From assembly GCF_016903815.1 (NCBI RefSeq), contig NZ_CP069973.1: a stretch of DNA of 64,000 nt. One strand, given 5' to 3'. The stretch comes from Escherichia coli (GTDB lineage Bacteria > Pseudomonadota > Gammaproteobacteria > Enterobacterales > Enterobacteriaceae). The stretch's first letter is position 1; every line of letters starts with the position of its first letter. The position numbers and the translations under genes were made by a program. The notes under the pieces were generated by a model that was not told where the DNA came from, ran no database searches, and worked only from the letters and a program-made list of their open reading frames with translations. Below, piece by piece: positions 30,128-47,855 of the stretch.

Positions 30128-30237
30128 TCCCGAGTGTGATTCCCTTTCGATATCAAAAGGGACTGCGGGTATAATTGAGGGTACATTTTTAATCAAACCA
30201 AATAAATTATATTAATATCAATATGATAAAAGAAATT

Positions 30238-30259: not shown

Positions 30260-30274
30260 CTAATTCTTAAGAAC

Positions 30275-30296
30275 CCGCCCACAAGGCGGGTTTTTG
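30275..30296 (+). terminator. Rho-independent terminator hairpin (CCCGCC-ACAA-GGCGGG + T-run) downstream of the tRNA remnant
   Basis: Perfect 6-bp stem, 4-nt loop, TTTTT; seen directly. Confidence 0.7.
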
Positions 30297-30429
30297 CTTT
30301 TGGATCTTTATATAAAATAAACTTGGGAGCATAACGCCATCAGGTCTTAAACACTCCCGAATCATCAATAAACATCCCCCGTTAACAAAACACAGTTCAG
30401 TTCACATAACATCCCTGTTATCCCACACA

Positions 30430-30649
30430 TATCTGCTGGCCGAACGACGCCAGTGCGCGTACGGAGGCAAGAGCAGCCCTGCACATGGCAGCGCTTGTGG
30501 TAACCTGGTTTAATCCGGTGATAAAGGCGTTTTACATGCATCTGCCAGCAGCCGGAAAAACCAAAAAAGTGGCGCTGGTTGACTGTATGCGTAAATTGCT
30601 GACCATCCTGAACGCAATGCTCAGAAAAAACGAAGAGTGAAATGAATCG
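30430..30649 (+). pseudogene. IS110-family transposase C-terminal remnant
   Basis: Translation ...AALVVTWFNPVIKAFYMHLPAAGKTKKVALVDCMRKLLTILNAMLRKNEE* matches the conserved IS110-family C-terminus; no upstream catalytic domain. Confidence 0.6.
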
Positions 30650-30659
30650 TAGCATCATG

Positions 30660-31450
30660 TTGCTCCATAATTTTTACGTTCAAGACAGTTGATTATCGGC
30701 GCATATGACTCAAAAAGAGCCTGATGATTGCCTCTTTTCCATAGGCTCTTTCTCTGAAGTGAAGGAAGGCCCGGAAGAAAGCACTCGCTGGCATACGTGA
30801 CTCCAGCTCAACCGGAGATAATCACCATTGTTATTTTTCTATTTAATAATAATCTCCTGAAAAATAGATATAGCAAAAATACAATCCGGCCAGATTTAAT
30901 TCCGCATTCATTACCAGAAATAATCAACACCACAACTATCATATCATTCAATAGTCACCGCTAAAATTTTATTATTTTCCTCTTCTTTACATGGAAATTG
31001 TCAACCTGTTTATTATGCCGCACTTAAATAGTTAATCACAAAACAACATCACCATTATTTGCGTGTTTTATTTATTAATAACATAGTCATACGTTCTTTT
31101 TTTACAAGGAAATAATCAATTGATAAATTGTTTTTGGTCTTAATAGTCAAGTAGGAAACATTTTAATAAATGATAAAAATCCTAAATTCCTTGTTCATAA
31201 TGTAGGGGTGTGTTAAATAGGTGGGCAAAATTTGGTTCCCCTTCTCGCCTGTAATATTGCAGCATCTTCGCACCTCCATGAGACATTGCGACTTAATAAG
31301 AAGGTGATAAGTCCTGCATATAAGCATGGACTGACCATGGTTTTATATTCATTAAAAATTTTGTTACAACCCATTGATTTAGCATAAATAAATTATAGTG
31401 GGTTCGGGTTAGTTGTGACTGTGGCATTATTTCCGTGCAAAGGAGCTGAT
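30660..31450 (+). promoter_or_regulatory. AT-rich kps region 1 promoter/leader region upstream of kpsF
   Basis: ~790 bp AT-rich non-coding DNA upstream of kpsF; exact promoter elements not resolved. Confidence 0.35.
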
Positions 31451-32434
31451 ATGTCTGAAAGACATTTACCTGATGACCAGAGCAGTACTATCGATCCATA
31501 TCTAATTACCTCTGTTCGCCAGACTCTGGCAGAACAAGGCGCAGCATTACAAAACTTGTCTAAACAACTGGATTCCGGGCAGTACCAGCGTGTCCTTAAT
31601 TTGATAATGAACTGTAAAGGTCACGTTATTCTTTCGGGAATGGGTAAATCAGGGCATGTCGGTCGTAAAATGTCAGCGACGCTGGCCTCTACGGGTACGC
31701 CTAGTTTCTTTATTCATCCTGCAGAAGCTTTCCATGGCGATCTGGGCATGATTACGCCTTACGATCTTCTGATCCTTATTTCTGCCAGCGGTGAAACGGA
31801 TGAAATCCTCAAGCTAGTTCCTTCACTGAAAAATTTCGGCAACCGAATTATCGCCATTACCAATAATGGAAATTCCACGCTGGCGAAAAATGCTGATGCC
31901 GTGCTGGAACTCCACATGGCGAATGAAACCTGCCCGAATAATCTTGCACCAACAACGTCTACCACGCTGACGATGGCGATCGGCGATGCGCTGGCGATTG
32001 CCATGATCCACCAACGCAAATTTATGCCGAATGATTTTGCGCGCTATCACCCGGGCGGTTCATTAGGTCGTCGCCTGCTGACCCGCGTTGCTGATGTCAT
32101 GCAGCATGATGTTCCTGCGGTACAGCTGGATGCGTCATTTAAAACCGTGATTCAACGTATCACCAGCGGATGCCAGGGAATGGTGATGGTAGAAGACGCA
32201 GAAGGTGGGCTAGCGGGCATTATCACCGACGGTGACCTGCGTCGCTTTATGGAAAAAGAGGATTCTCTGACATCCGCCACGGCTGCGCAGATGATGACAC
32301 GTGAACCGCTGACGCTACCGGAAGACACCATGATCATTGAAGCGGAAGAAAAAATGCAAAAGCACCGCGTCTCAACGTTATTGGTGACCAACAAGGCAAA
32401 TAAAGTCACTGGCCTTGTGCGCATTTTCGACTAA
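31451..32434 (+). CDS. kpsF: Arabinose-5-phosphate isomerase KpsF (SIS + CBS domains)
   Basis: Starts MSERHLPDDQ...; SIS motif GMGKSGHVGRK; first gene of kps region 1. Confidence 0.9.
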   Translation: MSERHLPDDQSSTIDPYLITSVRQTLAEQGAALQNLSKQLDSGQYQRVLNLIMNCKGHVILSGMGKSGHVGRKMSATLASTGTPSFFIHPAEAFHGDLGMITPYDLLILISASGETDEILKLVPSLKNFGNRIIAITNNGNSTLAKNADAVLELHMANETCPNNLAPTTSTTLTMAIGDALAIAMIHQRKFMPNDFARYHPGGSLGRRLLTRVADVMQHDVPAVQLDASFKTVIQRITSGCQGMVMVEDAEGGLAGIITDGDLRRFMEKEDSLTSATAAQMMTREPLTLPEDTMIIEAEEKMQKHRVSTLLVTNKANKVTGLVRIFD

Positions 32435-32505
32435 TTAAGCAACGGGGTGCGAGAGGTTAGTCTCTCATTGAGTTTGCGCCCCACTGAAACTTTGATAATC
32501 GTTAC

Positions 32506-33654
32506 ATGTTGATAAAAGTGAAGTCTGCCGTATCCTGGATGCGTGCTCGTCTGTCTGCCATCTCACTGGCAGATATCCAAAAACACCTGGCGAAAATCAT
32601 CATTCTGGCACCGATGGCGGTGCTGCTGATCTATCTGGCTATCTTCAGCCAGCCTCGCTATATGAGCGAGTCGAAAGTCGCCATTAAACGCTCGGATGAT
32701 TTAAACAGCGGCAGCCTGAATTTTGGTCTGCTTCTGGGTGCCTCTAACCCCAGTTCCGCAGAAGATGCGTTGTATCTGAAAGAGTACATCAACTCGCCGG
32801 ATATGCTGGCGGCGCTGGATAAGCAACTAAATTTTCGTGAAGCGTTTAGCCACAGCGGGCTCGATTTTCTTAATCATCTTAGCAAGGATGAAACCGCAGA
32901 AGGCTTCCTGAAGTACTACAAGGACCGTATCAACGTCTCGTATGACGATAAAACCGGATTACTGAATATTCAGACGCAGGGCTTTAGCCCGGAATTTGCG
33001 CTTAAGTTTAACCAGACCGTGCTGAAAGAGTCAGAGCGCTTTATCAATGAGATGTCACATCGCATCGCGCGTGACCAGCTTGCCTTTGCAGAAACGGAGA
33101 TGGAAAAGGCACGCCAGCGTCTGGACGCCAGCAAAGCGGAATTGCTCTCTTATCAAGACAACAACAACGTTCTGGATCCACAGGCACAGGCACAGGCGGC
33201 GAGCACGTTAGTGAATACGCTGATGGGCCAGAAGATCCAGATGGAAGCGGATCTGCGTAACTTGCTGACGTATCTGCGTGAGGACGCCCCGCAAGTAGTG
33301 AGTGCGCGTAATGCGATTCAGTCATTGCAGGCACAAATCGATGAAGAACAAAGCAAAATCACAGCGCCGCAGGGTGACAAGCTAAACCGTATGGCGGTGG
33401 ATTTTGAAGAAATCAAATCAAAAGTAGAGTTCAACACCGAGCTGTACAAACTGACCCTGACCTCCATTGAAAAGACCCGTGTAGAAGCGGCTCGTAAGCT
33501 CAAGGTGCTGTCAGTGATCAGTTCGCCACAGTTGCCGCAGGAATCGTCTTTTCCAAATATCCCTTATTTGATCGCCTGCTGGTTACTGGTGTGCTGCCTG
33601 CTGTTCGGCACCCTGAAACTGTTGCTGGCTGTTATTGAAGATCACCGAGACTAA
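32506..33654 (+). CDS. kpsE: Capsule export inner-membrane protein KpsE
   Basis: 382-aa ORF with coiled-coil and terminal transmembrane segments; region 1 position. Confidence 0.9.
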   Translation: MLIKVKSAVSWMRARLSAISLADIQKHLAKIIILAPMAVLLIYLAIFSQPRYMSESKVAIKRSDDLNSGSLNFGLLLGASNPSSAEDALYLKEYINSPDMLAALDKQLNFREAFSHSGLDFLNHLSKDETAEGFLKYYKDRINVSYDDKTGLLNIQTQGFSPEFALKFNQTVLKESERFINEMSHRIARDQLAFAETEMEKARQRLDASKAELLSYQDNNNVLDPQAQAQAASTLVNTLMGQKIQMEADLRNLLTYLREDAPQVVSARNAIQSLQAQIDEEQSKITAPQGDKLNRMAVDFEEIKSKVEFNTELYKLTLTSIEKTRVEAARKLKVLSVISSPQLPQESSFPNIPYLIACWLLVCCLLFGTLKLLLAVIEDHRD

Positions 33655-33674
33655 CGCTGTCGCTGAATGAGTTT

Positions 33675-35354
33675 GTGATGAAATTATTTAAATCAATTTT
33701 ACTGATTGCCGCCTGTCACGCGGCGCAGGCCAGCGCGGCCATTGATATTAACGCTGACCCAAACCTTACAGGAGCCGCGCCGCTTACCGGTATTCTGAAC
33801 GGGCAACAGTCGGATACGCAAAACATGAGCGGCTTCGACAATACCCCGCCGCCCGCACCGCCGGTGGTAATGAGCCGTATGTTTGGTGCTCAACTTTTCA
33901 ACGGCACCAGCGCGGATAGCGGTGCGACGGTAGGATTCAACCCTGACTATATTCTGAATCCGGGTGATAGCATTCAGGTTCGCTTGTGGGGTGCGTTCAC
34001 CTTTGATGGTGCGTTACAGGTTGATCCCAAAGGTAATATTTTCCTGCCGAACGTTGGTCCGGTGAAAGTTGCTGGCGTCAGTAATAGTCAGCTAAATGCC
34101 CTGGTCACATCCAAAGTGAAGGAAGTATACCAGTCCAACGTCAACGTCTACGCCTCCTTATTACAGGCGCAGCCAGTAAAAGTGTACGTGACCGGATTTG
34201 TGCGTAATCCTGGTCTGTATGGCGGTGTGACGTCTGATTCGTTACTCAATTATCTGATCAAGGCTGGCGGCGTTGATCCAGAGCGCGGAAGTTACGTTGA
34301 TATTGTGGTCAAGCGCGGTAACCGCGTGCGCTCCAACGTCAACCTGTACGACTTCCTGCTGAACGGCAAACTGGGGCTTTCGCAGTTCGCCGATGGTGAC
34401 ACCATCATCGTCGGGCCGCGTCAGCATACTTTCAGCGTTCAGGGCGATGTCTTTAACAGCTACGACTTTGAGTTCCGCGAAAGCAGCATTCCCGTAACGG
34501 AAGCTTTGAGCTGGGCGCGCCCTAAGCCTGGCGCGACTCACATTACGATTATGCGTAAACAGGGGCTACAAAAACGCAGCGAATACTATCCGATCAGTTC
34601 TGCGCCAGGCCGTATGTTGCAAAATGGCGATACCTTAATCGTGAGCACTGACCGCTATGCCGGCACCATTCAGGTGCGGGTTGAAGGCGCACACTCCGGT
34701 GAACATGCCATGGTACTGCCTTATGGTTCCACTATGCGTGCGGTTCTGGAAAAAGTCCGCCCGAACAGCATGTCGCAGATGAACGCGGTTCAGCTTTATC
34801 GCCCATCAGTGGCTCAGCGTCAGAAAGAGATGCTGAATCTCTCGCTGCAAAAGCTGGAGGAAGCCTCACTTTCTGCCCAGTCATCCACCAAAGAAGAAGC
34901 CAGCCTGCGAATGCAGGAAGCACAACTGATCAGCCGCTTTGTGGCGAAAGCACGCACCGTGGTTCCGAAAGGTGAAGTGATCCTCAACGAATCCAATATT
35001 GATTCTGTTCTGCTTGAAGATGGCGACGTCATCAATATTCCGGAGAAAACATCGCTGGTTATGGTTCATGGCGAAGTGCTGTTCCCGAACGCGGTGAGCT
35101 GGCAGAAGGGTATGACCACCGAGGATTACATCGAGAAATGTGGTGGCCTGACGCAAAAATCGGGTAACGCCAGAATTATCGTCATTCGTCAGAACGGTGC
35201 TGCCGTCAACGCGGAAGACGTGGATTCACTCAAGCCGGGCGATGAGATTATGGTTCTACCGAAATATGAATCGAAAAATATTGAAGTTACCCGTGGTATT
35301 TCCACCATCCTCTATCAGCTGGCGGTGGGTGCAAAAGTGATTCTGTCTTTGTAA
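33675..35354 (+). CDS. kpsD: Capsule export periplasmic/outer-membrane protein KpsD
   Basis: 559-aa ORF with signal peptide; region 1 position. Confidence 0.9.
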   Translation: MMKLFKSILLIAACHAAQASAAIDINADPNLTGAAPLTGILNGQQSDTQNMSGFDNTPPPAPPVVMSRMFGAQLFNGTSADSGATVGFNPDYILNPGDSIQVRLWGAFTFDGALQVDPKGNIFLPNVGPVKVAGVSNSQLNALVTSKVKEVYQSNVNVYASLLQAQPVKVYVTGFVRNPGLYGGVTSDSLLNYLIKAGGVDPERGSYVDIVVKRGNRVRSNVNLYDFLLNGKLGLSQFADGDTIIVGPRQHTFSVQGDVFNSYDFEFRESSIPVTEALSWARPKPGATHITIMRKQGLQKRSEYYPISSAPGRMLQNGDTLIVSTDRYAGTIQVRVEGAHSGEHAMVLPYGSTMRAVLEKVRPNSMSQMNAVQLYRPSVAQRQKEMLNLSLQKLEEASLSAQSSTKEEASLRMQEAQLISRFVAKARTVVPKGEVILNESNIDSVLLEDGDVINIPEKTSLVMVHGEVLFPNAVSWQKGMTTEDYIEKCGGLTQKSGNARIIVIRQNGAAVNAEDVDSLKPGDEIMVLPKYESKNIEVTRGISTILYQLAVGAKVILSL

Positions 35355-35363
35355 GGAGTTGAA

Positions 35364-36104
35364 ATGAGCAAAGCTGTTATTGTCATCCCGGCTCGTTATG
35401 GCTCATCGCGTCTGCCGGGTAAGCCGCTACTCGATATTGTCGGCAAACCGATGATCCAGCATGTTTACGAGCGTGCGTTACAGGTGGCGGGCGTCGCAGA
35501 AGTTTGGGTGGCAACAGACGATCAGCGTGTTGAAAAGGCCGTGCAGGCATTTGGCGGGAAAGCCATTATGACGCGCAACGATCATGAATCCGGCACCGAT
35601 CGGCTGGTCGAGGTGATGCATAAAGTCGAGGCAGATATCTACATTAACCTGCAGGGCGACGAACCAATGATTCGCCCGCGGGATGTAGAAACGCTGCTAC
35701 AAGGAATGCGTGATGATCCTGCGTTGCCAGTGGCAACGCTATGCCACGCGATTTCTGCCGAAGAAGCGGCTGAGCCAAGCACGGTAAAAGTGGTGGTAAA
35801 TACCCGCCAGGATGCGCTTTATTTCAGCCGTTCGCCTATTCCGTATCCGCGTAATGCTGAAAAAGCGCGCTACCTGAAACACGTTGGTATTTACGCTTAT
35901 CGTCGCGATGTGCTGCAAAACTACAGCCAGTTACCGGAGTCCATGCCGGAGCAGGCGGAATCACTGGAGCAGCTGCGGTTGATGAGCGCGGGGATCAACA
36001 TCCGCACATTTGAGGTTGCCGCAACCGGTCCGGGCGTCGACACCCCAGCATGCCTGGAAAAAGTGCGCGCCCTGATGGCACAGGAACTGGCTGAAAACGC
36101 ATGA
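35364..36104 (+). CDS. kpsU: CMP-Kdo synthetase KpsU (KdsB paralog)
   Basis: 246-aa [41 protein letters not shown]..., CMP-Kdo synthetase pattern. Confidence 0.92.
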
Positions 36105-38128
36105 TTGGCATTTACTCGCCTGGCATCTGGCGTATTCCGCATCTGGAGAAATTTCTGGCGCAACCGTGCCAGAAACTTTCTCTGCTGCGCCCTGTTCCGC
36201 AAGAAGTTGATGCTATCGCCGTGTGGGGACATCGTCCCAGCGCGGCGAAACCAGTCGCCATCGCCAAAGCAGCGGGAAAACCCGTCATTCGTCTGGAAGA
36301 TGGATTTGTGCGTTCGCTGGATCTTGGCGTCAATGGCGAGCCGCCGCTTTCTCTGGTGGTGGATGATTGTGGCATTTACTACGATGCCAGCAAGCCTTCA
36401 GCACTGGAGAAACTGGTACAGGATAAAGCCGGAAATACAGCTCTGATAAGCCAGGCCAGAGAAGCGATGCACACCATCGTGACCGGGGATTTGTCGAAAT
36501 ATAACCTGGCACCTGCGTTTGTGGCTGATGAGTCAGAACGTTCAGACATCGTTCTGGTTGTCGATCAGACATTTAATGATATGTCAGTGACGTATGGCAA
36601 TGCTGGCCCGCATGAGTTTGCTGCCATGCTGGAAGCCGCGATGGCGGAAAATCCTCAAGCCGAAATTTGGGTGAAGGTGCATCCGGATGTCCTGGAAGGA
36701 AAGAAAACAGGTTATTTCGCTGATCTGTGCGCCACGCAACGAGTACGTTTGATTGCCGAGAATGTCAGCCCGCAGTCGCTGTTGCGACACGTTTCCCGGG
36801 TTTACGTCGTGACCTCCCAATATGGCTTTGAAGCCTTGCTGGCAGGAAAACCAGTAACATGCTTCGGCCAGCCCTGGTATGCAGGTTGGGGCTTAACCGA
36901 CGATCGTCATCCACAGTCCGCTTTGTTATCTGCCCGACGCGGTTCTGCCACGCTGGAGGAACTTTTTGCCGCTGCATACCTGCGTTACTGTCGCTATATC
37001 GATCTGCAAACGGGAGAAGTAAGCGATCTATTTACCGTGCTGCAATGGCTGCAATTACAACGTCGACATCTGCAACAGCGTAATGGTTATTTATGGGCGC
37101 CAGGCTTAACGCTGTGGAAGTCAGCGATCCTGAAACCTTTCTTGCAAACGGCAACAAACCGGCTGAGTTTTTCACGTCGTTGTACTGCGGCGAGCGCCTG
37201 CGTGGTATGGGGTGTAAAGGGAGAACAGCAATGGCGAGCCGAAGCGCAACGAAAATCACTGCCGTTATGGCGAATGGAAGATGGTTTTCTGCGTTCATCC
37301 GGACTTGGCTCTGACCTTTTGCCGCCGCTATCGTTGGTCCTGGATAAACGCGGGATCTACTATGACGCCACGCGCCCCAGCGACCTGGAAGTGCTGCTTA
37401 ATCACAGCCAGTTAACACTGGCGCAGCAGATGCGAGCTGAGAAGTTGCGGCAACGGGTGGTTGAAAGCAAACTGAGCAAATACAACCTGGGGGCCGATTT
37501 CTCTCTGCCTGCCGAAGCCCAAGATAAAAAAATCATCCTGGTGCCGGGTCAGGTAGAAGACGATGCCTCTATTAAAACAGGCACTGTCTCGATTAAGAGC
37601 AACCTTGAGTTATTACGCACAGTACGCGAGCGTAATCCGCACGCCTACATTGTTTATAAACCGCACCCGGATGTACTGGTGGGGAATCGCAAGGGCGATA
37701 TTCCGGCAGAACAGATTGCTGAACTTGCTGATTATCAGGCACTGGACGCCGATATTATTCAATGCATTCAGCGCGCAGATGAAGTGCATACCATGACGTC
37801 GCTGTCGGGGTTTGAAGCGTTATTACATGGCAAGCACGTACATTGTTACGGCCTGCCCTTCTATGCCGGTTGGGGTTTAACCGCTGATGAACATCGCTGC
37901 CCGCGTCGCGAGCGAAAATTAACGTTAGCGGATTTGATCTATCAGGCGCTGATTGTTTATCCAACCTATATCCACCCAACACGGCTACAACCTATTACGG
38001 TAGAAGAAGCTGCGGAATATTTAATCAAGACGCCGCGCAAGCCGATGTTTATTACCCGAAAAAAAGCGGGGCGAGTCATACGCTATTACCGCAAATTAAT
38101 TATGTTCTGCAAGGTCAGATTTGGCTAA
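36101..38128 (+). CDS. kpsC: Capsule Kdo-linker transferase KpsC
   Basis: 675-aa ORF with internal duplication (two similar halves); region 1 position. Confidence 0.9.
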
Positions 38129-38162
38129 ACAATTTCATGGTTGACTATTACGCAAATTATTT

Positions 38163-39395
38163 ATGCAAGACAACGCACTAACCATTTTATTATCGGGTAA
38201 AAAATATCTGCTATTGCAGGGACCGATGGGACCTTTTTTCAATGACGTCGCCGAATGGTTAGAGTCATTAGGCCGTAACGCTGTGAATGTTGTCTTCAAC
38301 GGCGGGGATCGTTTTTACTGCCGCCATCGACAATACCTGGCTTACTACCAAACGCCGAAAGAGTTTCCCGGTTGGCTGCGAGATCTCCAACGACAATATG
38401 ACTTTGATACCATCCTCTGTTTTGGTGACTGCCGCCCATTGCACAAAGAAGCAAAACGCTGGGCAAAGTCGAAAGGGATCCGCTTTCTGGCATTTGAAGA
38501 AGGATATTTACGCCCGCAATTTATAACCGTTGAAGAAGGCGGAGTGAACGCATATTCATCGCTACCGCGCGATCCGGATTTTTATCGTAAGTTGCCAGAT
38601 ATGCCTGCGCCGCACGTTGAGAACTTAAAACCTTCAACGATGAAACGTATAGGTCATGCGATGTGGTATTACCTGATGGGCTGGCATTACCGTCATGAGT
38701 TCCCTCGCTACCGCCACCACAAATCATTTTCCCCCTGGTATGAGGCTCGTTGCTGGGTTCGTGCATACTGGCGCAAACAACTTTACAAGGTAACACAGCG
38801 TAAGGTATTACCGAGGTTAATGAACGAGTTGGATCAACGTTATTATCTTGCCGTTTTGCAGGTATATAACGATAGCCAGATTCGTAACCACAGCAGTTAT
38901 AACGATGTACGTGACTATATTAATGAAGTCATGTACTCATTTTCGCGTAAAGCGCCGAAAGAAAGTTATTTGGTGATCAAACATCATCCGATGGATCGTG
39001 GTCACAGACTCTATCGACCATTAATTAAGCGGTTAAGTAAGGAATATGGCTTAGGTGAGCGAGTCATATACGTGCACGATCTCCCAATGCCGGAATTATT
39101 ACGCCACGCAAAAGCAGTAGTGACAATTAACAGTACGGCAGGGATCTCTGCGCTGATTCATAACAAACCACTCAAAGTGATGGGCAATGCCCTGTACGAC
39201 ATCAAGGGATTGACGTATCAAGGGCATTTGCACCAGTTCTGGCAGGCCGATTTTAAACCGGATATGAAACTGTTTAAGAAGTTTCGGGGGTATTTATTGG
39301 TGAAGACGCAGGTTAATGGGGTTTATTATGGGGAGATGGTTTTTAACAAGATAAAACTGGATGAATATTTTCAGAGCGTGTCGTGTCAAGTATGA
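38163..39395 (+). CDS. kpsS: Capsule Kdo-linker transferase KpsS
   Basis: 410-aa ORF following kpsC. Confidence 0.9.
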   Translation: MQDNALTILLSGKKYLLLQGPMGPFFNDVAEWLESLGRNAVNVVFNGGDRFYCRHRQYLAYYQTPKEFPGWLRDLQRQYDFDTILCFGDCRPLHKEAKRWAKSKGIRFLAFEEGYLRPQFITVEEGGVNAYSSLPRDPDFYRKLPDMPAPHVENLKPSTMKRIGHAMWYYLMGWHYRHEFPRYRHHKSFSPWYEARCWVRAYWRKQLYKVTQRKVLPRLMNELDQRYYLAVLQVYNDSQIRNHSSYNDVRDYINEVMYSFSRKAPKESYLVIKHHPMDRGHRLYRPLIKRLSKEYGLGERVIYVHDLPMPELLRHAKAVVTINSTAGISALIHNKPLKVMGNALYDIKGLTYQGHLHQFWQADFKPDMKLFKKFRGYLLVKTQVNGVYYGEMVFNKIKLDEYFQSVSCQV

Positions 39396-39656
39396 AATAT
39401 AATAATAAACAACACAAAACAATTATTAAAATGATGCCATTTTAATGTTACAAATATAAACAACACCCATCCACAAGCCAAGTTAAAAATCCAAGATATA
39501 ATTTTGTTATTATCTATAAATAATACAAGTATAATCTATACGCTAATCAATTATTTTTGTAGAAAATTTATTTTATTAGTATTTACACGAAAATATGACG
39601 AAGTTATTAGCATTACACATTTATAATCATCAAATATGAAAATATTGTTACTATCA

Positions 39657-40655
39657 TCACTCCTCAATAAGTTTATCTAAAGGAATATAATATAATTGAG
39701 CAAATCTTTTTTTATGATCCCCAAGAGCAAACATGATAACCAATGATTTTGATTTGCGATCAATAGCTAAACCTTCAGGTTCCCAATGTTTTTCTTTGCC
39801 ACTGTTAAGAGAATCTTTTTTCCCTACTGTTACATTATTAAACTTTCTTACAAGCTCTCCTTTTAACGTGTAAATATAGATTCTTTTGTTTTCTCTATTC
39901 CCTCCCCCACTCAACAAATATATATATTTATTATCAGCGGTAATGGCTTGCAATACATAATTATCATTGGTTAAACCTGCATCGATAAACCATTCTATAT
40001 TTTGTTCTGATGAAATATCACTCTCGATTCGAAAGTTAACTTCTTCACTATTATAGACTCTTAATAAGTCTCTACCATTCAACTTACTTCTTACTATTAA
40101 ATATTTAGCATCTAAGGTTAAAACAGGCATTGTACTAACACGAGTATTATATGGTCTATCGAATATTTTTATAATTTTCATCTCATAAGGAAAAGAAAAA
40201 TCATTGTATTTAAAATATGTAACAAACCATCCTTTGTTAGCAAAGGCATTTCCCGCAGACGTTATTACCCCCCCCTCAAAAGGATCAAACCCAATTCCTT
40301 GATGCCCAATAAATTCAGTGGGTTTTTGAAATGACAATGCTACAGCTTTTCTTTTTTTTGTTGTTAATGAGAATCTATTTATAACTCCTTTTTCGGGTTT
40401 CCCTGTGGTATGTAAAGTATAAATATCAGAACTAAATCTATCAATCACGACTCCTTGAACAATATTATTTTTACCCTCGCCATCCCTATATAATCTCACT
40501 TTTCTCGTAACAATATCATCATTTAAATGAGAAATAAAATTAGCCAAAGGTATATTTGTTGCAGATGATGAATTATGCAACAACATTAATATCAAAAAAA
40601 ATAAATTTATATACTTCAAACACATTGAAAATTTTTCATATGAACCGATTAGCAT
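39657..40655 (-). CDS. kps region 2 hypothetical protein (AT-rich, function unknown)
   Basis: 332-aa ORF in low-GC serotype-specific region. Confidence 0.5.
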   Translation of the reverse strand: MLIGSYEKFSMCLKYINLFFLILMLLHNSSSATNIPLANFISHLNDDIVTRKVRLYRDGEGKNNIVQGVVIDRFSSDIYTLHTTGKPEKGVINRFSLTTKKRKAVALSFQKPTEFIGHQGIGFDPFEGGVITSAGNAFANKGWFVTYFKYNDFSFPYEMKIIKIFDRPYNTRVSTMPVLTLDAKYLIVRSKLNGRDLLRVYNSEEVNFRIESDISSEQNIEWFIDAGLTNDNYVLQAITADNKYIYLLSGGGNRENKRIYIYTLKGELVRKFNNVTVGKKDSLNSGKEKHWEPEGLAIDRKSKSLVIMFALGDHKKRFAQLYYIPLDKLIEE

Positions 40656-41037
40656 AATATTAGATTATACCAAATAAACGCACTAACCAAACTTGAATTT
40701 AAAAACACAGTTCACAACTTAAGAAGCACTATTTTAAACACATTGATAAAACAATGAAAATCCCGCAAACACTCTAATTATTAAAATACATAAAAATAAA
40801 AATCGTTATAAAAAAAGTTATAATCCATCAAAAACAAAAAAATGCACATAAAATATTTCTGTTTAAGAAGATGTTATAAATACAATATTTAATTCATCAA
40901 ATGTTTTTCTATTGGCAATTTACTAAACTGTATTTACAGTATAAAAAATACTAAATACATTTCCACATCAGAGGTGATCACAAAACAACCACCTCTTGCA
41001 GTCATATTTTTTACATCTGCATGGTTTTTAATATTAA

Positions 41038-42204
41038 TTATGAAAAATAAGTTTCATACCTTTTTTTATATGTTTCACTTTCAGGGGATAGACTATATGC
41101 CATTTGGGCCATTTTTTTTGCATCTTCCAATAACCCTTTCCTTTCATATATTAGAGATAGATTATAATACGAGCCAGCAGATGAAGGCATTAAAGATATA
41201 TATTCATAGAAATGCTGTATTGCCTGATCATATTTTTTTGACATCCTTAATGACTTTGCCAAATTATATTTAGCTGTTGTAAAATGTGGCGAAATACCGG
41301 CAACAAAAGCAAACTGCTCTACAGCTAAAGTATAGTTCTTGAGCTCCATATTTACTAAAGCAGAAATAAATATAGCAGGTTCGAGTAAAGGTTCAGCCAA
41401 CAAAGCTTCCCTGATTAAAGATTGAGCAGTGGAAAAATCTTTGTTGACAAATGCCTGGTAAGACAGGAATATATTTTTTGATAAGATTTTATTATGGCAA
41501 AGATTATTAATCTCTTTAATTTCGGGAAGTGTGTTATTTTCCACAAAAAAGGTTATTATATTAGGCATTCCATATCTTTTATCTATAAACCGCCCCACAC
41601 CATGTGTTACTCCTCGAACGGAATACGCTTTAACATTTTTAAGATCTGAAATCCTACTCAATGAAAGTAAATCAGGAAAATCCATTTCCCCACTTAATGC
41701 TGTGATTCTACATTTAGAGTTTTTTATAATTGGGCGTAGATTCTTATATATAATTTTTGTCTTTTTAGGAATTCTTTTAGCACTACGGCTCAAGGGATAT
41801 TTTAGTACCGTGTCAAAGCTAAAGGCTAACACACGACAATCCAGAAGAGCGCCAAATAATGAAGCTGCATATCCTCCCATACTGACGCCTATTGTTATAA
41901 TCTCGTCACAACCTAGTTGTTCAGAAATATATTTTATTTTTTCTATTGTTTCTGATATTGAAGAACTAAACCCTGGAATACTATCTTGGTACCATTCATT
42001 TTTACCATTGTTAATTAACAAAATATTATATGGCAGTTCATCTGCTGATTTCCAAAAATCAAAGCGGCCATCTTTTTTATCTGTACCAGAAAAAAAGACG
42101 AGCAATTTATTAGACGTTTTTTTAATCAGTCTATGAGAAACCCCATGCTCATTTATATTTAATTGTAAATTCATATTTTTATTATCTAAAGTCATGATAT
42201 ACAT
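41038..42204 (-). CDS. kps region 2 protein: alpha/beta-hydrolase-like N-terminal part with C-terminal TPR-like repeats
   Basis: 388-aa ORF; GVSMGGYAAS nucleophile-elbow-like motif; helical repeats at C-terminus. Confidence 0.5.
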   Translation of the reverse strand: MYIMTLDNKNMNLQLNINEHGVSHRLIKKTSNKLLVFFSGTDKKDGRFDFWKSADELPYNILLINNGKNEWYQDSIPGFSSSISETIEKIKYISEQLGCDEIITIGVSMGGYAASLFGALLDCRVLAFSFDTVLKYPLSRSAKRIPKKTKIIYKNLRPIIKNSKCRITALSGEMDFPDLLSLSRISDLKNVKAYSVRGVTHGVGRFIDKRYGMPNIITFFVENNTLPEIKEINNLCHNKILSKNIFLSYQAFVNKDFSTAQSLIREALLAEPLLEPAIFISALVNMELKNYTLAVEQFAFVAGISPHFTTAKYNLAKSLRMSKKYDQAIQHFYEYISLMPSSAGSYYNLSLIYERKGLLEDAKKMAQMAYSLSPESETYKKRYETYFS

Positions 42205-42232
42205 CCATTTTTTTAAAAATTGATAAGTAACT

Positions 42233-43423
42233 TTACACTTTTAACTTTCTAGAAAATAAATTTTTCGCTTTTCTGTAAAATGGTAGTTTTTTATTCTTAA
42301 TGGATTTTTCAAGTTTATTCAGCTTTGGCTTACATGTTCGAAGCTCTTGCACAGTCTCTCTAACATAGAGCTGCGTTTGTGTTAGTGGCGGAATTAACCC
42401 ATTATATAGTTTTTTTATATAGTTAATACATAGCTGTGAAGCATTTACCTCTTTATCTACGTAAAAAAGACTTTCACGAAGATTTGATGCTCTTAATACA
42501 ATATCTTGACAGTTATTGAGACAGTGAATTATGGATGGTTCAAAATCAGAAAGACTAGTGCAAACATAACCTATCTCGTCTCTATGTTTAAACTCTAAAG
42601 ATGTAAGATCAAATTTTTGAATACCTATTTTGTTTTTCAATCCAGCTTGATATAGAAGAATAGGTTTTTCTGCATACATACCGTCAAATATAGCCCCAGA
42701 AAAATCACTTATAATCAAATCTGCCGCACAAAGCAATTTTAATTGGTCCGCAGAACCATCGTAAACATGTTTTAAGTTTGCTTTATTTGCAGAATCTACC
42801 CATTCAGGTATTTTTGCATCATTATTGTGATGCATCTTTAATATAAGATTATATTTTGATTGTAACCGAGATATTGTATCCAGAAGTTCAAAATATGAAC
42901 CCAACTCCCCCCAAGTAGGCATGTAAAGCAATGTCTTTTTGGTTATATCTAATTTTAATTCTTTATAAAGCTCTTCTCTATTTGAGTACTTTTGTTTGTA
43001 CTCTAACCAATTATCAAACTTTGGATTTCCAACAGGATAGGATGGCGCATAGTGAGAAACAATATTAGATGAATAGTCACCATACATTAAATTCATGTCA
43101 GCAAGAGAACGCCATTCACCATAATTATGGCGCTCCTTTGCTAAACCATATTGTATTGAAACTAATTTACTATTTTTAATTTTCTCAATACCAGGAAAAG
43201 CCGACTGAAAAAGTAAGATATCATGAGTCCCATCAATAACGGGAACATCATGGGGCTCAATATACACTACATTCCATGATTTGTTATTAATTAACTTCTT
43301 GGGAAACAAGGCAAGGTTATTGTTTTTCCTAATAATAAAAATAGTTGGTTTTTCTAATTTTAATGCAATAGATTTGAATTGAATCAACTGGAATGGATTC
43401 CAGATTATAAATCCTACTTTCAT
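42233..43423 (-). CDS. CDP-glycerol glycerophosphotransferase (TagF/TagB-like), capsule polymerase candidate
   Basis: 396-aa ORF with TagF-like C-terminal region (LLYMPTWGE..., ISDFSGAIFDG). Confidence 0.65.
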   Translation of the reverse strand: MKVGFIIWNPFQLIQFKSIALKLEKPTIFIIRKNNNLALFPKKLINNKSWNVVYIEPHDVPVIDGTHDILLFQSAFPGIEKIKNSKLVSIQYGLAKERHNYGEWRSLADMNLMYGDYSSNIVSHYAPSYPVGNPKFDNWLEYKQKYSNREELYKELKLDITKKTLLYMPTWGELGSYFELLDTISRLQSKYNLILKMHHNNDAKIPEWVDSANKANLKHVYDGSADQLKLLCAADLIISDFSGAIFDGMYAEKPILLYQAGLKNKIGIQKFDLTSLEFKHRDEIGYVCTSLSDFEPSIIHCLNNCQDIVLRASNLRESLFYVDKEVNASQLCINYIKKLYNGLIPPLTQTQLYVRETVQELRTCKPKLNKLEKSIKNKKLPFYRKAKNLFSRKLKV

Positions 43424-43429
43424 ATTTAT

Positions 43430-44689
43430 TCACTTTGTAATTTGTTCAAAAATTATTCTTTCTTTATCCCATTCATGCAGGTGGGTTCCCACTTCATTCT
43501 CATCAACAAAATAATGAGTATGAAAATCTTTATTGTTATGGAAATGAGTAAAACCGAACAAACATTCTTTGGGTATTTTACCAACTATAGAGTAAACCCA
43601 ATAGGCAACTGCTAGTCCTGTACTTGGTAGACCATCTAGTTTTTTTATAAGTGATTTGTACACATGATTTGGTATAACCGTATATTCCATTTCCATTAAT
43701 TGTGGAGCAAGAAAATATTTGTTTGCATCTCTTCTTTTTATTGTGAAATTATTCGCCGCAAAAATAACAAGTCTATTGTTTTTGAGATTATTATTGCTTA
43801 CTTCTTTATTTGCCACTCTAACCCATATATCCTGCTTTGTACCATAATCATCCGGATAGTCCAGGGTATAATTGTTTATTCTAATCACTGTTTTTTTAGA
43901 ATCAATCAACGCTCCATGACCGGTATTTATTTCTGTTGGTGCATTCCCAACAATACAAAAACTACCAGCGGAATTTCTAATTGATTTTATAAACTCATTT
44001 CGTGATTTTAAGATGTGAGAATATTGTTCACTTCCTCTTTGTATATATGGATCATTAAAAATCTTATTCTTTTTAATCTTGTTAAAAACATAAGGACTGC
44101 TTGTATATTTCAACAGAAACTTTTTCCCTATTTGCTTAATAATTTCATTAGCTTTAGCATCCTTATCATTTTGATATAACATTATTGCCAAGCGTAATTT
44201 TTGACTTTTATTTAAATTTCTCAATGATACATCAGAGCAAAGTCGTGATATTATTCTTTTAAGCCTGTCTGATTTATAGCCATATTTTTGTGAAATAAAA
44301 TCAGAATACCTAAGATTAATAGTTATTTCTTTATTTCTGTAATGCGCTGAAATAAAATGTTTTTCTGTAATATCGCTATAGTTACGATATCTTAGTAACC
44401 AATCAGCAATTGAGTAATGAATGTAACGTGATTTTACTTTATTGAATAAGTAAAAAGGTACTATCCCTACATTATCATGCGTTTTTTTTATCTTTATAAA
44501 CAGCAAAGAATTAATAAAATGAAAAAAATGAACTTTACGTATAAACCAAGAACCTTGTAACTTCACCACATTATCTTCACCTATAAAAATGAGTAATCTC
44601 ATTATTAGCTTGTCATAAATACTATATCTAGAAAAATAAACATCTTGCGCTTTTTTTATGAGTATTTTCTTTATTGACATATTATGCAA
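43430..44689 (-). CDS. Putative capsule glycosyltransferase
   Basis: 419-aa ORF in region 2 between the TagF-like and TagD-like genes; family not resolved. Confidence 0.45.
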   Translation of the reverse strand: MHNMSIKKILIKKAQDVYFSRYSIYDKLIMRLLIFIGEDNVVKLQGSWFIRKVHFFHFINSLLFIKIKKTHDNVGIVPFYLFNKVKSRYIHYSIADWLLRYRNYSDITEKHFISAHYRNKEITINLRYSDFISQKYGYKSDRLKRIISRLCSDVSLRNLNKSQKLRLAIMLYQNDKDAKANEIIKQIGKKFLLKYTSSPYVFNKIKKNKIFNDPYIQRGSEQYSHILKSRNEFIKSIRNSAGSFCIVGNAPTEINTGHGALIDSKKTVIRINNYTLDYPDDYGTKQDIWVRVANKEVSNNNLKNNRLVIFAANNFTIKRRDANKYFLAPQLMEMEYTVIPNHVYKSLIKKLDGLPSTGLAVAYWVYSIVGKIPKECLFGFTHFHNNKDFHTHYFVDENEVGTHLHEWDKERIIFEQITK

Positions 44690-44782
44690 GTTTCTTTTGT
44701 TAGTTCGCTCTAAGCCTCAACAGACATAGGTGTTCATTCCCTTTTCAAGGGGATGAACACCTACCTGAACATAAACATTAAT

Positions 44783-45190
44783 TTAACTGTATTTTTTAAT
44801 CTCCGTAATAAGTTTTGTAGTAGAAATGCCTTCCGTCCTTGGTAAATAAATAACCTCGCATAACTTTTTAAACATATCAAACTTTCCTTCCCAATCATTA
44901 CCCATAATAAGAATGTTAGCTTTATATTTTTTTATATACTCACCTTTTAATTCAAGTGACTCCTCAAGAAATACGTCATCAACATATTGTAGAGAACGAA
45001 TAATTTCACATCGCTCATTTTCTGGGTAAACTGGGTATCTTTGCTTTTTAGAGAAACTTAATGCATCGGATGACACGCCAACAATTAATCGATCACCATA
45101 TTTCTTTGCTCTTTCTAAAATTTTAATGTGGCCAATATGTAAAACATCAAATGTTCCAAAGGTTATGACTGTACGCATTGTATATTCCAA
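44783..45190 (-). CDS. Glycerol-3-phosphate cytidylyltransferase (TagD-like)
   Basis: 135-aa ORF with nucleotidyltransferase motif FGTFDVLHIGH. Confidence 0.85.
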   Translation of the reverse strand: MEYTMRTVITFGTFDVLHIGHIKILERAKKYGDRLIVGVSSDALSFSKKQRYPVYPENERCEIIRSLQYVDDVFLEESLELKGEYIKKYKANILIMGNDWEGKFDMFKKLCEVIYLPRTEGISTTKLITEIKKYS

Positions 45191-45347
45191 TTTATATAAA
45201 GAGAGATTTTTTGATAACGGAAATCAAGATTTAGCAAAATAAATACCATCGCCATCAACCTCACCTCATAAAGTCAGTAAATACAAATGAGAACAAGGTG
45301 ATTTCGTGATAATAATTGCATGAATTACACAACTTGAATGAAGATAA

Positions 45348-46022
45348 TCAATATGTATTAATTGTTATGTTGTTTTTATACTCCTCTATCCCCTCCTGAA
45401 CATCCTCATGAAAACTAACCGCATTATCATCCATAAACACAATGGCCACATCGCAAAACTCTTTCAATGAATTCAAACTATGTGAAACCATTAAAAAACT
45501 AGATTCTTTATGCCTTTCTTTAAACAATTGAGCGCACTTTTCTTTAAACCTGGCATCACCGACCGCCGTTACTTCATCGACGATATAATAATCAAACTTA
45601 AATGCCATGCTTAAACCAAAGCCCAGGCGAGATCGCATACCTGATGAGTAAGTTTTAATCGGCATATCAAAGTACTTACCGAGTTCGGCAAATTCTTCGA
45701 CAAACTCAATTTTCTCTTTCAGTTCTTCTTGCTTCGCGTATAACCGCGCAACAAATTTTACGTTTTCGCGTCCGGTTAAACTTCCCTGAAATCCACCTGC
45801 GAGGCCGACTGGCCATGATATTGTTTTATTAGTGATGATCTTTCCACTGTCGGGGCGGTCAATGCCGCCAATCATTCTCAGTAACGTTGATTTACCCGCT
45901 CCGTTGCGACCAATAAAGGCAACACTTTTTCCTGAAGGGATTTCAATATTTAAATCCTTAAAGACATAGTGTCGACCCGTTGGCGTGCGATAGGACTTCG
46001 TCAAATTCTCAATCTTAATCAT
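45348..46022 (-). CDS. kpsT: Capsule export ABC transporter ATP-binding protein KpsT
   Basis: 224-aa ORF MIKIENLTKSYRTPTGRHYVFK... with Walker A GRNGAGKST. Confidence 0.92.
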   Translation of the reverse strand: MIKIENLTKSYRTPTGRHYVFKDLNIEIPSGKSVAFIGRNGAGKSTLLRMIGGIDRPDSGKIITNKTISWPVGLAGGFQGSLTGRENVKFVARLYAKQEELKEKIEFVEEFAELGKYFDMPIKTYSSGMRSRLGFGLSMAFKFDYYIVDEVTAVGDARFKEKCAQLFKERHKESSFLMVSHSLNSLKEFCDVAIVFMDDNAVSFHEDVQEGIEEYKNNITINTY

Positions 46023-46795
46023 GATGTCAGCATTGCCTCTTCACGCGTTCGGTATAACGCCAGACCGATGAACAGGGTGACCAGAGTGAACATTGCCAGG
46101 TAGTTCAGACTTACGCCTTCGCTGATATAGCCAGGCATAACAGCCTCGCGGCTTAGCTCCACCACATGTACTAATGGGTTCCAGAGTAGATATGACCAGT
46201 ATTGCTTTGGAATCGAGTGTAGAGGGAACATGATGCAGGAGATGAAATACAGCGGCTTAAGCAGTATCGGCAGAACCTTTTGCATTTCGGGGAAGGTTTT
46301 ACCAACGACCATGAATATTAAGCCGACGCCACATGAAAGAATGATCAGCAGGCTCCAGGTAGCCACAAGTTGTAAAAAATTTGTTATCTCGAAATATTCG
46401 CCTGCCATCCAGACAATGAGCATAAGCAGAATATAAACAGCAACGTAAATCAGTGTCTCAAGCAGTGCGCGTGCAATGATCGTATCGATGGGTTTTACTG
46501 GTCGATAATTAAACAACCCCTGATTCGCTTCAATAGCACCTACAGAACGATTGCTGATACTGCTAAAGATAAAAAAGGGAATCAGGCCATTAAGTAAAAA
46601 CACCGGGAATGAGATGTCTGGCATCGTGCGGTGCATAATGTAACCAAAAATGCCCAACAGTATCAGCAAATGCGCAGAGGGTTCGAGAATCGCCCACAAA
46701 TATCCCAGACGGAACTTACCAAAGCGTGTTCGTATTTCTCGTAGAAATAATGCCTCTACGGTGACTTTCTGGACTTCAAATCCACTTCTTGCCAT
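46019..46795 (-). CDS. kpsM: Capsule export ABC transporter permease KpsM
   Basis: KpsM sequence begins MARSGFEVQKVT at codon 48 of the 305-aa ORF; upstream in-frame part is leader. Confidence 0.88.
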   Translation of the reverse strand: MARSGFEVQKVTVEALFLREIRTRFGKFRLGYLWAILEPSAHLLILLGIFGYIMHRTMPDISFPVFLLNGLIPFFIFSSISNRSVGAIEANQGLFNYRPVKPIDTIIARALLETLIYVAVYILLMLIVWMAGEYFEITNFLQLVATWSLLIILSCGVGLIFMVVGKTFPEMQKVLPILLKPLYFISCIMFPLHSIPKQYWSYLLWNPLVHVVELSREAVMPGYISEGVSLNYLAMFTLVTLFIGLALYRTREEAMLTS

Positions 46796-46823
46796 TTGAT
46801 GATGTGATCCTAATCTCTTCAGG

Positions 46824-46835
46824 TACGCTACCGCC
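46824..46835 (-). promoter_or_regulatory. ops (operon polarity suppressor) element GGCGGTAGCGTA in kpsM leader (RfaH-dependent antitermination)
   Basis: Minus-strand GGCGGTAGCGTA is the reverse complement of plus-strand tacgctaccgcc, just upstream of the kpsM start. Confidence 0.7.
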
Positions 46836-47855
46836 CCTGGCTTAACAGCTACCAATACACTGGAGGTAATACTTGACTTGTTTGTAACTGGATAAAATTC
46901 ATTCGGACGGCTTGACCTTTTAATAGCCAAAAACAATTTCAGCAGAAATTATTTCCGCAGGGATAAATAGATCTATTTCCGTCTCGTTTCTTCTAATCCA
47001 TTCTTCAGGCATGAATGTATTCGGTCTTCTGGTAATTTCAGAAAACTGGCCGTTTTAGAATGCAGAGTTAATTTCTCAGGAAATTATTTTTTGTGATTAC
47101 TGTTAACTACTTGATTATAATATCCCCTATGGATTTTATGCGTAACAATACCTACAATCTGTTTCAAACCAGAACGCACGCGATTGATTACCAATAAATT
47201 GTTCACCGAGAAACTATTTCCCTATTTAAAATTCACTCGTGTACTTCTTATTTATATCTACAGCCCCCTCTTTACAGCCATATTTGTGATTCATATCACA
47301 TTTAAATGGTGTTATTTAAGTCGCATCAATAATCCCGAAGGTAATTATTTTCGTCGATTAAAATATACATCTTGATTATTTTGTGTGTTTATTTTAACCA
47401 GTGTTACAACCAACACCATCCCTCAGTAGATATACCTGAGCAGACATTTCTTAAAATCAACGAATAGTTTCACTGGAAATTATTATGCTTATTTGAAATT
47501 CCCTTTCTGATTATCTCCAGGAATTTTACTAATTTCCAAGCTACACAAAATACAGATCACACAAGAATTATCCTATATGTTTTGGCCTATCAATTGTTAC
47601 TCAATGATTTATTGCAACTATTAATAATCATAATGTGTCAAAACACTTAAGCAACTTTACAGTCTGAGAAAGGTGTCGATTAACGAAGGCTACATGGTGA
47701 AAAACAGGTTCCTTCAGTGTTACCGAATATTCCGTGGTGGTCTGGAGGGAGATAATTCTTGCTACATCGAAACTCAGCCCGGTAAGCGGGTTTGACAGTT
47801 CCGCACTCACCATTGGGCTAAGGGTTATCAGGTGGGGTTAAGGAAATGGCAATAC

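Follow-up and report, generated by a model that had tools for sequence, protein, structure and literature searches.

Region 2 of the capsule locus and its K type

A 64,000-nucleotide stretch of Escherichia coli DNA (contig NZ_CP069973.1), hereafter the window, carries a kps capsule locus in which kpsFEDUCS and kpsMT flank a variable region 2, the arrangement of a group 2 (2A) locus. Five intact open reading frames (ORFs), all on the minus strand, exactly fill positions 39657-45190 (39657-40655, 41038-42204, 42233-43423, 43430-44689, and 44783-45190; 332, 388, 396, 419, and 135 amino acids (AAs) in coordinate order). The listed ORF starts are slightly too long; the RefSeq starts result in products of 322, 385, 396, 416, and 131 AAs. 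Many complete E. coli chromosomes match the window at 100% identity over 5,951 bp; one of them, strain 7/2, supplied the gene map through its RefSeq annotation (window coordinate = locus coordinate + 27399). The ORF list and this map confirm what a first-pass annotation had described from the letters of the DNA, five minus-strand genes between kpsS (38163-39395, plus strand) and kpsT (45348-46022, minus strand). Its remark that region 2 is far more AT-rich than its flanks is borne out by GC contents of 0.302 in region 2, 0.503 in region 1, 0.428 in kpsTM, and 0.477 in the whole window.

The kTYPr study, in which the World Health Organization K-antigen reference strains were sequenced and which covers 85 transporter-dependent K-types, gives NZ_CP074024.1:777049-793732 of strain PK5 as the K24 reference locus (Miravet-Verde et al. 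2026, Nat Microbiol, PMC13171606). Comparison with typed region 2 sequences, which the first-pass annotation had recommended, gave 99.94% identity with this reference over 6,718 bp (window 39383-46100). The five region 2 proteins have the same WP accessions in the K24 reference and in strain 7/2, and the lengths and domains published for K24_8 (309 AAs, beta-propeller superfamily), K24_9 (385 AAs, tetratricopeptide repeat, TPR), K24_10 (396 AAs, teichoic-acid glycerol-phosphate primase family), K24_11 (a “GT0” score from one of three tools, with no CAZy assignment), and K24_12 (157 AAs, cytidylyltransferase) (PMC13171606) agree with those of the five window proteins. By the kTYPr definition, which is based on region 2 gene content, the locus is of the K24 type. 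The reference has the same flanking kpsFEDUCS and kpsTM genes as the window and differs from it by an IS4-like insertion sequence (IS), ISVsa5, located between the propeller gene (see below) and kpsS. ISVsa5 is the sole interruption in the alignment; it lies at 7521-8729 of the extracted reference locus (L002), overlaps the annotated 3′ end of kpsS, and corresponds to the gap at 39396-39656 in the window.

Of 5,426 complete E. coli genomes, 60 have the three central genes (41038-44689), in every case on the chromosome. Identity to the window over these three genes is at least 99.9% in 49 genomes, 98.6% in one, and 97.2-97.3% in ten; the last group includes LF82, NRG 857C (O83:H1), and A0 34/86, the Colinfant probiotic published as O83:K24:H31. 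Owing to the identity with the K24 reference and to the presence of the 97% allele in an O83:K24:H31 strain, the window block is, by sequence comparison, the K24 region 2 (group 2, lineage 2A) in the commoner of its two alleles. Publications already cover the locus, its K type, and the domains predicted for it. The practical value of the assignment is correct K typing, K24 occurring in roughly 1% of complete genomes, among them those of the adherent-invasive E. coli LF82 and NRG 857C and of the infant probiotic A0 34/86. Four “hypothetical protein” calls suggest a disruption in SCU-313, the genome with the 98.6% allele, and OZ546938 carries an IS1B insertion.

The five region 2 proteins and their relatives

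The 131 AA product of 44783..45178 (minus strand) is a TagD-like glycerol-3-phosphate cytidylyltransferase. It matches TIGR01518 with E=9e-38 and 129.2 bits, which is below the 165.4-bit equivalog cut-off of this family with the next family far behind, and it has the nucleotidyltransferase motifs HIGH (18-21 AAs) and RTEGISTT (118-125 AAs). It shares 78% identity with the TagD of the K2 locus and 98.5% with that of strain E4, and probably makes CDP-glycerol. In RefSeq it bears the misleading names “pantoate--beta-alanine ligase” or “FAD synthase family protein”. The gene at 42233..43423 (minus strand) encodes a stand-alone TagF-like CDP-glycerol glycerophosphotransferase of 396 AAs with a PF04464 domain (E=5e-16, residues 128-262), in which the YxPTW, KxHH, and SDxSGAIFD motifs are invariant in six orthologues. 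Since the NCBIfam TarF/TarB models score far below cut-off (23.6 vs 550), the assignment, made by sequence profiles, is at the family level and does not make the protein an orthologue of TarF or TarB. [quoted passage not shown] Both the TagD and the TagF assignment had been put forward in the first-pass annotation, and both hold in the profile searches. Neither outcome that the first-pass annotation had named as refuting its reading occurred, be it a loss of these assignments under profiles or a match of region 2 to a typed capsule devoid of glycerol phosphate.

The 416 AA product of 43430..44680 (minus strand, RefSeq start) had been called a putative glycosyltransferase. It is indeed glycosyltransferase-like, matching the Pfam family PF00777 with E=6.6e-4 over residues 217-412; in addition, a helical domain is fused to this GT29 (glycosyltransferase family 29) sialyltransferase-like domain. 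The AlphaFold2 (AF2) model (mean predicted local distance difference test score, pLDDT, 85.7) has an all-helical, TPR-like N-terminal half (approximately residues 1-240) and a Rossmann-like C-terminal half. The best 24 Foldseek matches of the model in the PDB are all GT29 enzymes (probability 1.0, E ~1e-2), and the structural matches in AFDB are uncharacterised bacterial “GT29 family” proteins, some of them fused to KpsS/KpsC-like modules. A PDB search with the single sequence gave zero matches and NCBIfam has no family for the protein; the PDB matches of the family profile are GT29 sialyltransferases only. In the profile alignments to ST3Gal-I and ST8SiaIII, His405 falls on the motif VS histidine of ST8SiaIII, and the other invariant residues of the homologue alignment (Gly248, Asn249, Arg270-Ile271-Asn272, Pro355-Ser356-Thr357-Gly358, Phe378-Gly379-Phe380, and His392-Tyr393) fall on motifs L, S, and III. 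The family is small, with only 20 homologues among 5.8 billion clustered proteins; in 18 homologues all four sialyl motifs are invariant and in order, L (C-x-VGN...IRINN), S (PSTG...FGF), III (HY[FY]), and VS (H-x4-E). The protein thus has the fold and the sialyl motif order in common with ST3Gal-I, ST6GalNAc2, ST8SiaIII, and ST6Gal1, to which it is 13-18% identical; unlike these, it is bacterial and cytoplasmic, lacks a membrane anchor and stem, and has the extra 240-residue helical N-domain. The case for a GT29 fold rests on the consistency of individually weak scores.

Five contigs with homologues of the GT29-like protein were examined (L010-L014; L010-L013 are metagenome or read-archive assemblies). 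L010-L013 each carry a capsule locus of the kps type, in which the GT29-like gene is directly followed downstream by the TagF-like gene; in L010, L011, and L013 the pair comes after a TagD-like gene. L010 has the full K24 set, the genes for the hydrolase-TPR protein and the propeller (both described below) among them, at ~54-66% protein identity. In L011 the genes after the pair encode, in this order, a hexapeptide O-acetyltransferase, KdsA, and a fused KdsB-KdsC, and no hydrolase-TPR gene was seen in this locus; in L012 it is followed by genes for KdsA, a KdsB-KdsC fusion, and KpsF. These Kdo pathway assignments are all above the NCBIfam cut-offs. The fusion of CMP-Kdo synthetase with Kdo-8-phosphate phosphatase (L011 12594-15281, L012 12520-15698) is unusual. 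The most distant homologue of the GT29-like protein, P0019 in L014, has a different gene context.

The 385 AA protein (RefSeq start) encoded at 41038..42195 (minus strand) consists of an alpha/beta-hydrolase domain (~20-230) and a C-terminal TPR domain (~235-388; residue numbers are those of the 388 AA ORF translation). The AF2 model (pLDDT 91.9) agrees with this domain composition, already recognized in the first-pass annotation, as do the putative triad residues Ser108 (in GVSMGG), Asp175 or Asp178, and His201, all of which are invariant across 16 homologues. Foldseek matches the model to esterases, to TPR proteins, and to the Gap2/Asp2 chain (6oyc_B). Asp2/Gap2 of the accessory Sec system and the XcbB/CpsF family have the alpha/beta-hydrolase fold and the Ser-Asp-His triad in common with the window protein, which differs from them in its fused C-terminal TPR domain and in having no significant direct sequence match to either; a match to XcbB/CpsF around the nucleophile elbow reaches 22.6 bits, the cut-off being 125. 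K122_8, 35% identical to the hydrolase-TPR protein, matches Pfam Asp2. The protein, which has no signal peptide, probably acts in the cytoplasm as an O-acyl(acetyl)transferase or esterase, as a scaffold for assembly, or as both. The Ser-Asp-His triad suggests the transfer or the removal of an O-acyl group, and the hexapeptide acetyltransferase gene after the TagF-like gene in L011 points to O-acylation too. CsaC and OatWY of the Neisseria capsules are likewise cytoplasmic O-acetyltransferases of the alpha/beta-hydrolase fold encoded in capsule loci. Some RefSeq records carry the misleading name “M48 family metallopeptidase” for the hydrolase-TPR protein.

The gene next to kpsS (39657..40625, minus strand, RefSeq start; the ORF extends to 40655) encodes a 322 AA protein, listed with 332 AAs and as an unknown in the first-pass annotation, to which a family can now be assigned. 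It is a five-bladed beta-propeller of the P68 RBP/TagC-like type (PF21311, E=1.8e-13); its relatives are named “P68 RBP/TagC-like beta-propeller” in UniRef, and a PDB sequence search matches it to the tail fibre of phage P68 (E=2e-4). NCBIfam has no family for it. Read by eye, the N-terminal sequence MCLKYINLFFLILMLLHNSSSA resembles a Sec signal, and the protein is probably periplasmic or surface-exposed. The five-bladed propeller is common to this protein, to the receptor-binding platform domain of phages P68 and phi11, and to Bacillus subtilis TagC (PF21311). The window protein differs from the phage proteins in being a stand-alone domain of ~320 AAs that has a Sec signal, lacks the stem and tower domains, and is encoded in a Gram-negative capsule locus. 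The propellers of phages P68 and phi11 recognise wall teichoic acid, and the gene of the window propeller belongs to a capsule locus predicted to be of a teichoic-acid-like kind. We offer as a tentative suggestion, with the odds against it, that the window propeller binds a polyol-phosphate polymer, or trims or processes it, outside the cytoplasm.

A propeller gene adjoins kpsS in L010 and L012, in inverted orientation, and at the same position as in the window in the E. coli B/BL21 locus, which also encodes TarI, a short-chain dehydrogenase/reductase (SDR), a TagF-like protein, and IS1. In BL21(DE3), region 2 (L003 9250-15477) comprises the propeller gene, a gene for a 379 AA protein, the SDR gene, IS1A, and genes for a TarI-type cytidylyltransferase and a 450 AA TagF-like protein; it looks like a ribitol-phosphate-type locus with IS1A between the SDR and TarI genes. 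The 379 AA neighbour of the propeller has no NCBIfam match and no similarity to any K24 protein. In the kps locus of Rahnella woolbedingensis (L008) a propeller gene also adjoins kpsS, with an analogous set that includes an IspD-SDR fusion. A propeller next to kpsS is not universal in such loci; the idea was rejected, as the 331 AA signal-peptide protein of the K2 locus has no propeller-family hidden Markov model (HMM) match at E<=1.

The propeller gene may alternatively be a phage remnant that has no role in the capsule. Among proteins of known structure its product can be related only to the receptor-binding proteins of staphylococcal phages, its homologues in Acinetobacter are not in capsule loci, the gene is flipped in L010 and L012, recombination junctions fall within it, and RefSeq names its product, misleadingly, “phage baseplate protein”. 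We nevertheless consider a remnant unlikely, since the gene lies in a chromosomal capsule locus with no other phage genes nearby, it encodes a stand-alone domain with a Sec-type signal peptide in place of the phage stem and tower domains, and it adjoins kpsS in at least five capsule loci from different organisms, each of which has in addition a gene for a TagF-type (PF04464) polyol-phosphate transferase or, in the case of Rahnella, for a CDP-ribitol-type synthase; the propellers are 80% (E. coli B) and 40% (Rahnella) identical to that of the window where this was measured. A capsule-associated propeller is therefore preferred. A 382-bp non-coding gap (40656-41037, GC ~0.24) parts its gene from the other four genes of region 2; this AT-rich gap and the inverted orientation in L010 and L012 suggest that the propeller gene is transcribed as a unit of its own.

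Candidate α-Kdo transfer and assembly of the polymer

The K24 polymer contains α-Kdop (PMC12887879). CMP-Kdo is the β anomer, and the formation of an α-Kdo linkage from it therefore needs an inverting enzyme. GT29 enzymes are inverting and use CMP-β-ulosonic acids as donors, and the GT29-like protein is the sole glycosyltransferase candidate within region 2. Among known Kdo transferases, WaaA (GT30) is inverting and forms α-Kdo linkages, while KpsS/KpsC (GT99/GT107) and KrkA (GT140) are retaining β-Kdo transferases. With KpsS, KpsC, and KrkA the GT29-like protein would have the CMP-β-Kdo donor and a role in group 2 capsule assembly in common; it differs from the known Kdo transferases in its fold class and has zero detectable similarity to them, is not a GT-B/GT30 enzyme as WaaA is, and its predicted product is the α anomer, unlike that of the KpsC/KrkA type. 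K24 is not among the K types for which kTYPr lists a GT99/GT107-like Kdo-transferase domain (PMC13171606). The predicted donor, CMP-Kdo, and the predicted acceptor, a glycerol hydroxyl, set the protein apart from the GT29 sialyltransferases, the donor of which is CMP-N-acetylneuraminic acid; because CMP-Kdo is the predicted donor, membership of GT29 at the level of function, that is, of sialic acid transfer, is doubtful. We infer that the GT29-like protein is an inverting α-Kdo transferase that alternates with the TagF-like enzyme. GT29-like proteins of plants have reportedly been proposed as transferases of Kdo or of 3-deoxy-D-lyxo-hept-2-ulosaric acid (Dha) for rhamnogalacturonan II.

In a different explanation, the GT29-like protein is not a Kdo transferase; it would move another CMP-activated sugar or be structural, and Kdo would be added by a KpsC/KpsS-type enzyme or by one encoded elsewhere. 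The capsule Kdo transferases characterised so far being of the retaining GT99, GT107, and GT140 types, and the GT29 scores being weak, this deserves attention; we hold it, however, to be unlikely. The α-Kdo of K24 requires inversion of CMP-β-Kdo, which the retaining KpsC/KpsS enzymes would not provide; nonulosonic and sialic acid synthesis genes are absent from the locus by both the ORF list and the annotation; the motif VS histidine and the CMP-binding motifs are invariant; and the pairing with the TagF-like gene is conserved, with KdsA and KdsB-KdsC genes beside the pair in two loci.

We thus return to the α-Kdo transferase and propose, from the α-Kdop of the polymer, the β configuration of CMP-Kdo, the inverting chemistry of GT29, the lack of another glycosyltransferase candidate, and the absence of K24 from the GT99/GT107-like list, that the GT29-like and TagF-like enzymes act in alternation. 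The TagD-like enzyme would make CDP-glycerol, and KpsF and KpsU together with the housekeeping enzymes KdsA and KdsC would make CMP-β-Kdo. KpsS and KpsC would build the poly-Kdo lipid primer, on which the two separate enzymes would alternate: with CDP-glycerol as donor, the stand-alone TagF-like enzyme would attach glycerol-3-phosphate to Kdo, and with CMP-β-Kdo as donor, the GT29-like enzyme would attach Kdo to glycerol with inversion, resulting in the α-Kdop linkage. Oligomerisation of fused TagF-like polymerases is mediated by their TPR domain, which may also serve to dock partners (PMC5974469); in K24 the enzymes are probably held together in a similar way, by the GT29-like protein's helical N-domain and by the TPR domain of the hydrolase. 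The alpha/beta-hydrolase domain would probably O-acylate or de-acylate the polymer, KpsMT and KpsED would export it, and the propeller, bearing a signal peptide, would act outside the cytoplasm on the polymer or with it. Expression would be expected from the region 3 promoter via the ops/RfaH element upstream of kpsM. The glycerol-phosphate, teichoic-acid-like chemistry foreseen by the first-pass annotation is retained in this scheme, on the strength of the TagD and TagF profiles and of the K24 type, and the sugar partner of glycerol phosphate is probably Kdo, not galactose.

Taken together, we assign a probability of about 85% to the joint explanation that the window carries a K24 region 2 that makes a Kdo-glycerol-phosphate polymer by the proposed mechanism. 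Several points weigh against it. The structure of the K24 polymer reportedly dates from 1990, and a paper of that year by Lenter, Jann and Jann reportedly describes K24 with glycerol phosphate; of the K24 repeat unit only the α-pyranose Kdo is confirmed by the literature search, and the presence of glycerol phosphate and the linkage are taken from that reported structure. The roles of all five proteins rest on sequence and model comparison, and the GT29 scores are individually weak (Pfam E=6.6e-4; Foldseek E ~1e-2). A role of the hydrolase in O-acylation of K24 is a guess. The adjacency of the pair to CMP-Kdo genes is only suggestive, since CMP-Kdo is required for the linker in any kps locus. 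The Acinetobacter homologues of the propeller lie outside capsule loci, and the window allele is ~3% divergent from the allele of the serotyped O83:K24 strain.

That the GT29-like protein would be the first characterised bacterial GT29-fold α-Kdo transferase and, at the same time, the propeller a dedicated accessory of polyol-phosphate capsules in the periplasm or at the surface is, as a joint claim, an even bet. If true, the propeller would be a component outside the current model of capsule assembly dependent on ATP-binding cassette (ABC) transporters. A 2026 Journal of Biological Chemistry paper describes the enzymes that place Kdo in variable capsule regions as uninvestigated before its own work on a retaining β-Kdo enzyme. 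The proposed Kdo transfer, if true, would be a modest but real addition that fills a gap in the 2026 literature, in which α-Kdo-forming capsule enzymes are unidentified, and would provide a new enzyme for the chemo-enzymatic synthesis of Kdo-containing glycans.

The divergence of the two alleles bears on a further possibility, that the window allele has the K24 gene content and specifies a serologically or chemically distinct variant of the O83:K24 antigen, differing for example in O-acylation or linkage. The split between 49 genomes at 99.9% or above and the O83 type at 97.2-97.3% would allow this, as would the 95% identity of the GT29-like protein between the two alleles; kTYPr groups proteins at 90% identity or above, so that the alleles are not separated there (PMC13171606). 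We regard such a variant as improbable: gene content and order are the same, the ORFs are all intact, the catalytic motifs are invariant, and a divergence of 3-5% in E. coli K loci usually preserves the backbone.

The K2-like character of the locus that the first-pass annotation had inferred did not survive the comparison with K2 itself. Region 2 of the K2 locus of CFT073 encodes a 131 AA TagD-like protein, a 411 AA TPR protein, a 1,266 AA polymerase (“CDP-glycerol glycerophosphotransferase family”), a 342 AA XcbB/CpsF protein, and the 331 AA signal-peptide protein mentioned above. Only TagD and a remote TagF-like domain are common to the two regions, the K24 TagF-like protein being 22% identical to the K2 polymerase over 136 residues (BLASTP, E=5e-6). 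The other three K24 proteins have no K2 counterpart beyond TPR repeats by BLASTP and family HMMs, neither the large fused TagF-like/glycosyltransferase polymerase nor the XcbB/CpsF protein that characterise the K2 type is encoded in the K24 block, and a megablast search with the whole block matched zero K2 genomes. A K2 or K2-like locus making a galactosyl-glycerol-phosphate polymer has next to no chance, in spite of the common TagD (78% to CFT073), the glycerol-phosphate chemistry, and the five minus-strand genes with a signal-peptide protein adjoining kpsS in both loci, since the fused polymerase, the 411 AA TPR protein, and the XcbB/CpsF protein of K2 have no true counterpart in the K24 block, a hexose-type GT-A or GT-B transferase is absent between kpsS and kpsT, and the block is identical to the K24 reference. 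The K2 reading was rejected at the sequence level on these differences in region 2 gene content and on the identity with the K24 reference.

The K24 locus can instead be described as teichoic-acid-like capsule machinery in a compact, unfused form. K2 and the systems with fused TagF-like polymerases (Cps1B, Cps3D, Cps7D, and CslB; Litschko et al. 2018, PMC5974469) likewise make a CDP-glycerol-based teichoic-acid-like polymer, and they have TagF-like catalytic motifs and TPR modules tied to the polymerase in common with K24. In those systems a single protein of 850-1,270 AAs combines a GT-A or GT-B hexosyltransferase, the TagF-like domain, and TPR (PMC5974469), whereas in K24 the TagF-like enzyme stands alone (396 AAs), the GT29-like transferase presumably uses CMP-Kdo, and TPR-type modules are found on the transferase and on the alpha/beta-hydrolase.

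Mosaic structure, regulatory signals, and flanking genes

The DNA of region 2 is a mosaic. The end of kpsS and the 3′ half of the propeller gene (39400-40193) are 97.5% identical to the ribitol-phosphate-type locus of E. coli B/BL21/C, a similarity that fades by ~40475. At the other end, TagD and kpsT (44790-46100) are 97-98.9% identical to a different K locus, that of strain E4, which encodes a GT8 protein, a 701 AA KpsS-like protein, and a 369 AA TagF-like protein. In view of these junctions with the E. coli B/BL21/C and E4 loci, region 2 was evidently built by the recombination of modules. The flanks are 93-99.8% identical in DNA to other kps loci, and region 3 is 93-97% identical to the region 3 of other K loci.

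In K1 and K5 loci, ops is the loading site of RfaH, and region 3 transcripts read through into region 2. An ops element (GGCGGTAG) is present at 46828..46835 (minus strand) in the kpsM leader of the window, 33 nt upstream of the ATG of kpsM (46795), as expected of the ops/JUMPStart arrangement of a group 2 kps locus. The 8-mer core GGCGGTAG has two matches in the window versus approximately one expected, and it is the position that matters, not the count; the 12-mer pattern GGCGGTAGNNTG has zero matches in the window. The core before kpsM fits an RfaH-dependent read-through from region 3 into region 2, by analogy with the K1 and K5 loci. Since it sits 33 nt upstream of the kpsM start, the listed 305 AA ORF 46019-46936 over-extends kpsM into its leader. 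Within region 2, 54 promoter-like sites were found versus a shuffled expectation of 41.9 (standard deviation 6.1), a marginal excess in AT-rich DNA, and predicted terminators are at the shuffled expectation (4 vs 4.0).

Region 1 (31451..39395, plus strand, by the RefSeq annotation of strain 7/2) comprises kpsF, kpsE, kpsD, kpsU (a kdsB paralogue), kpsC, and kpsS, the flanking genes of CMP-Kdo supply, of poly-Kdo lipid linker synthesis, and of the export machinery. Region 3 (45348..46795, minus strand, same annotation) encodes the ABC exporter, with kpsT at 45348-46022 and kpsM at 46019-46795, and beyond kpsM lies the yghD-gsp type II secretion operon. Upstream of kpsF (window ~27400-31450), genes for a YeeU/CbtA type IV toxin-antitoxin pair and for DUF5983, DUF957, and DUF4942 proteins are found together with a remnant of an IS110 transposase; the arrangement of this island-type cargo matches that upstream of the K2 locus of CFT073.

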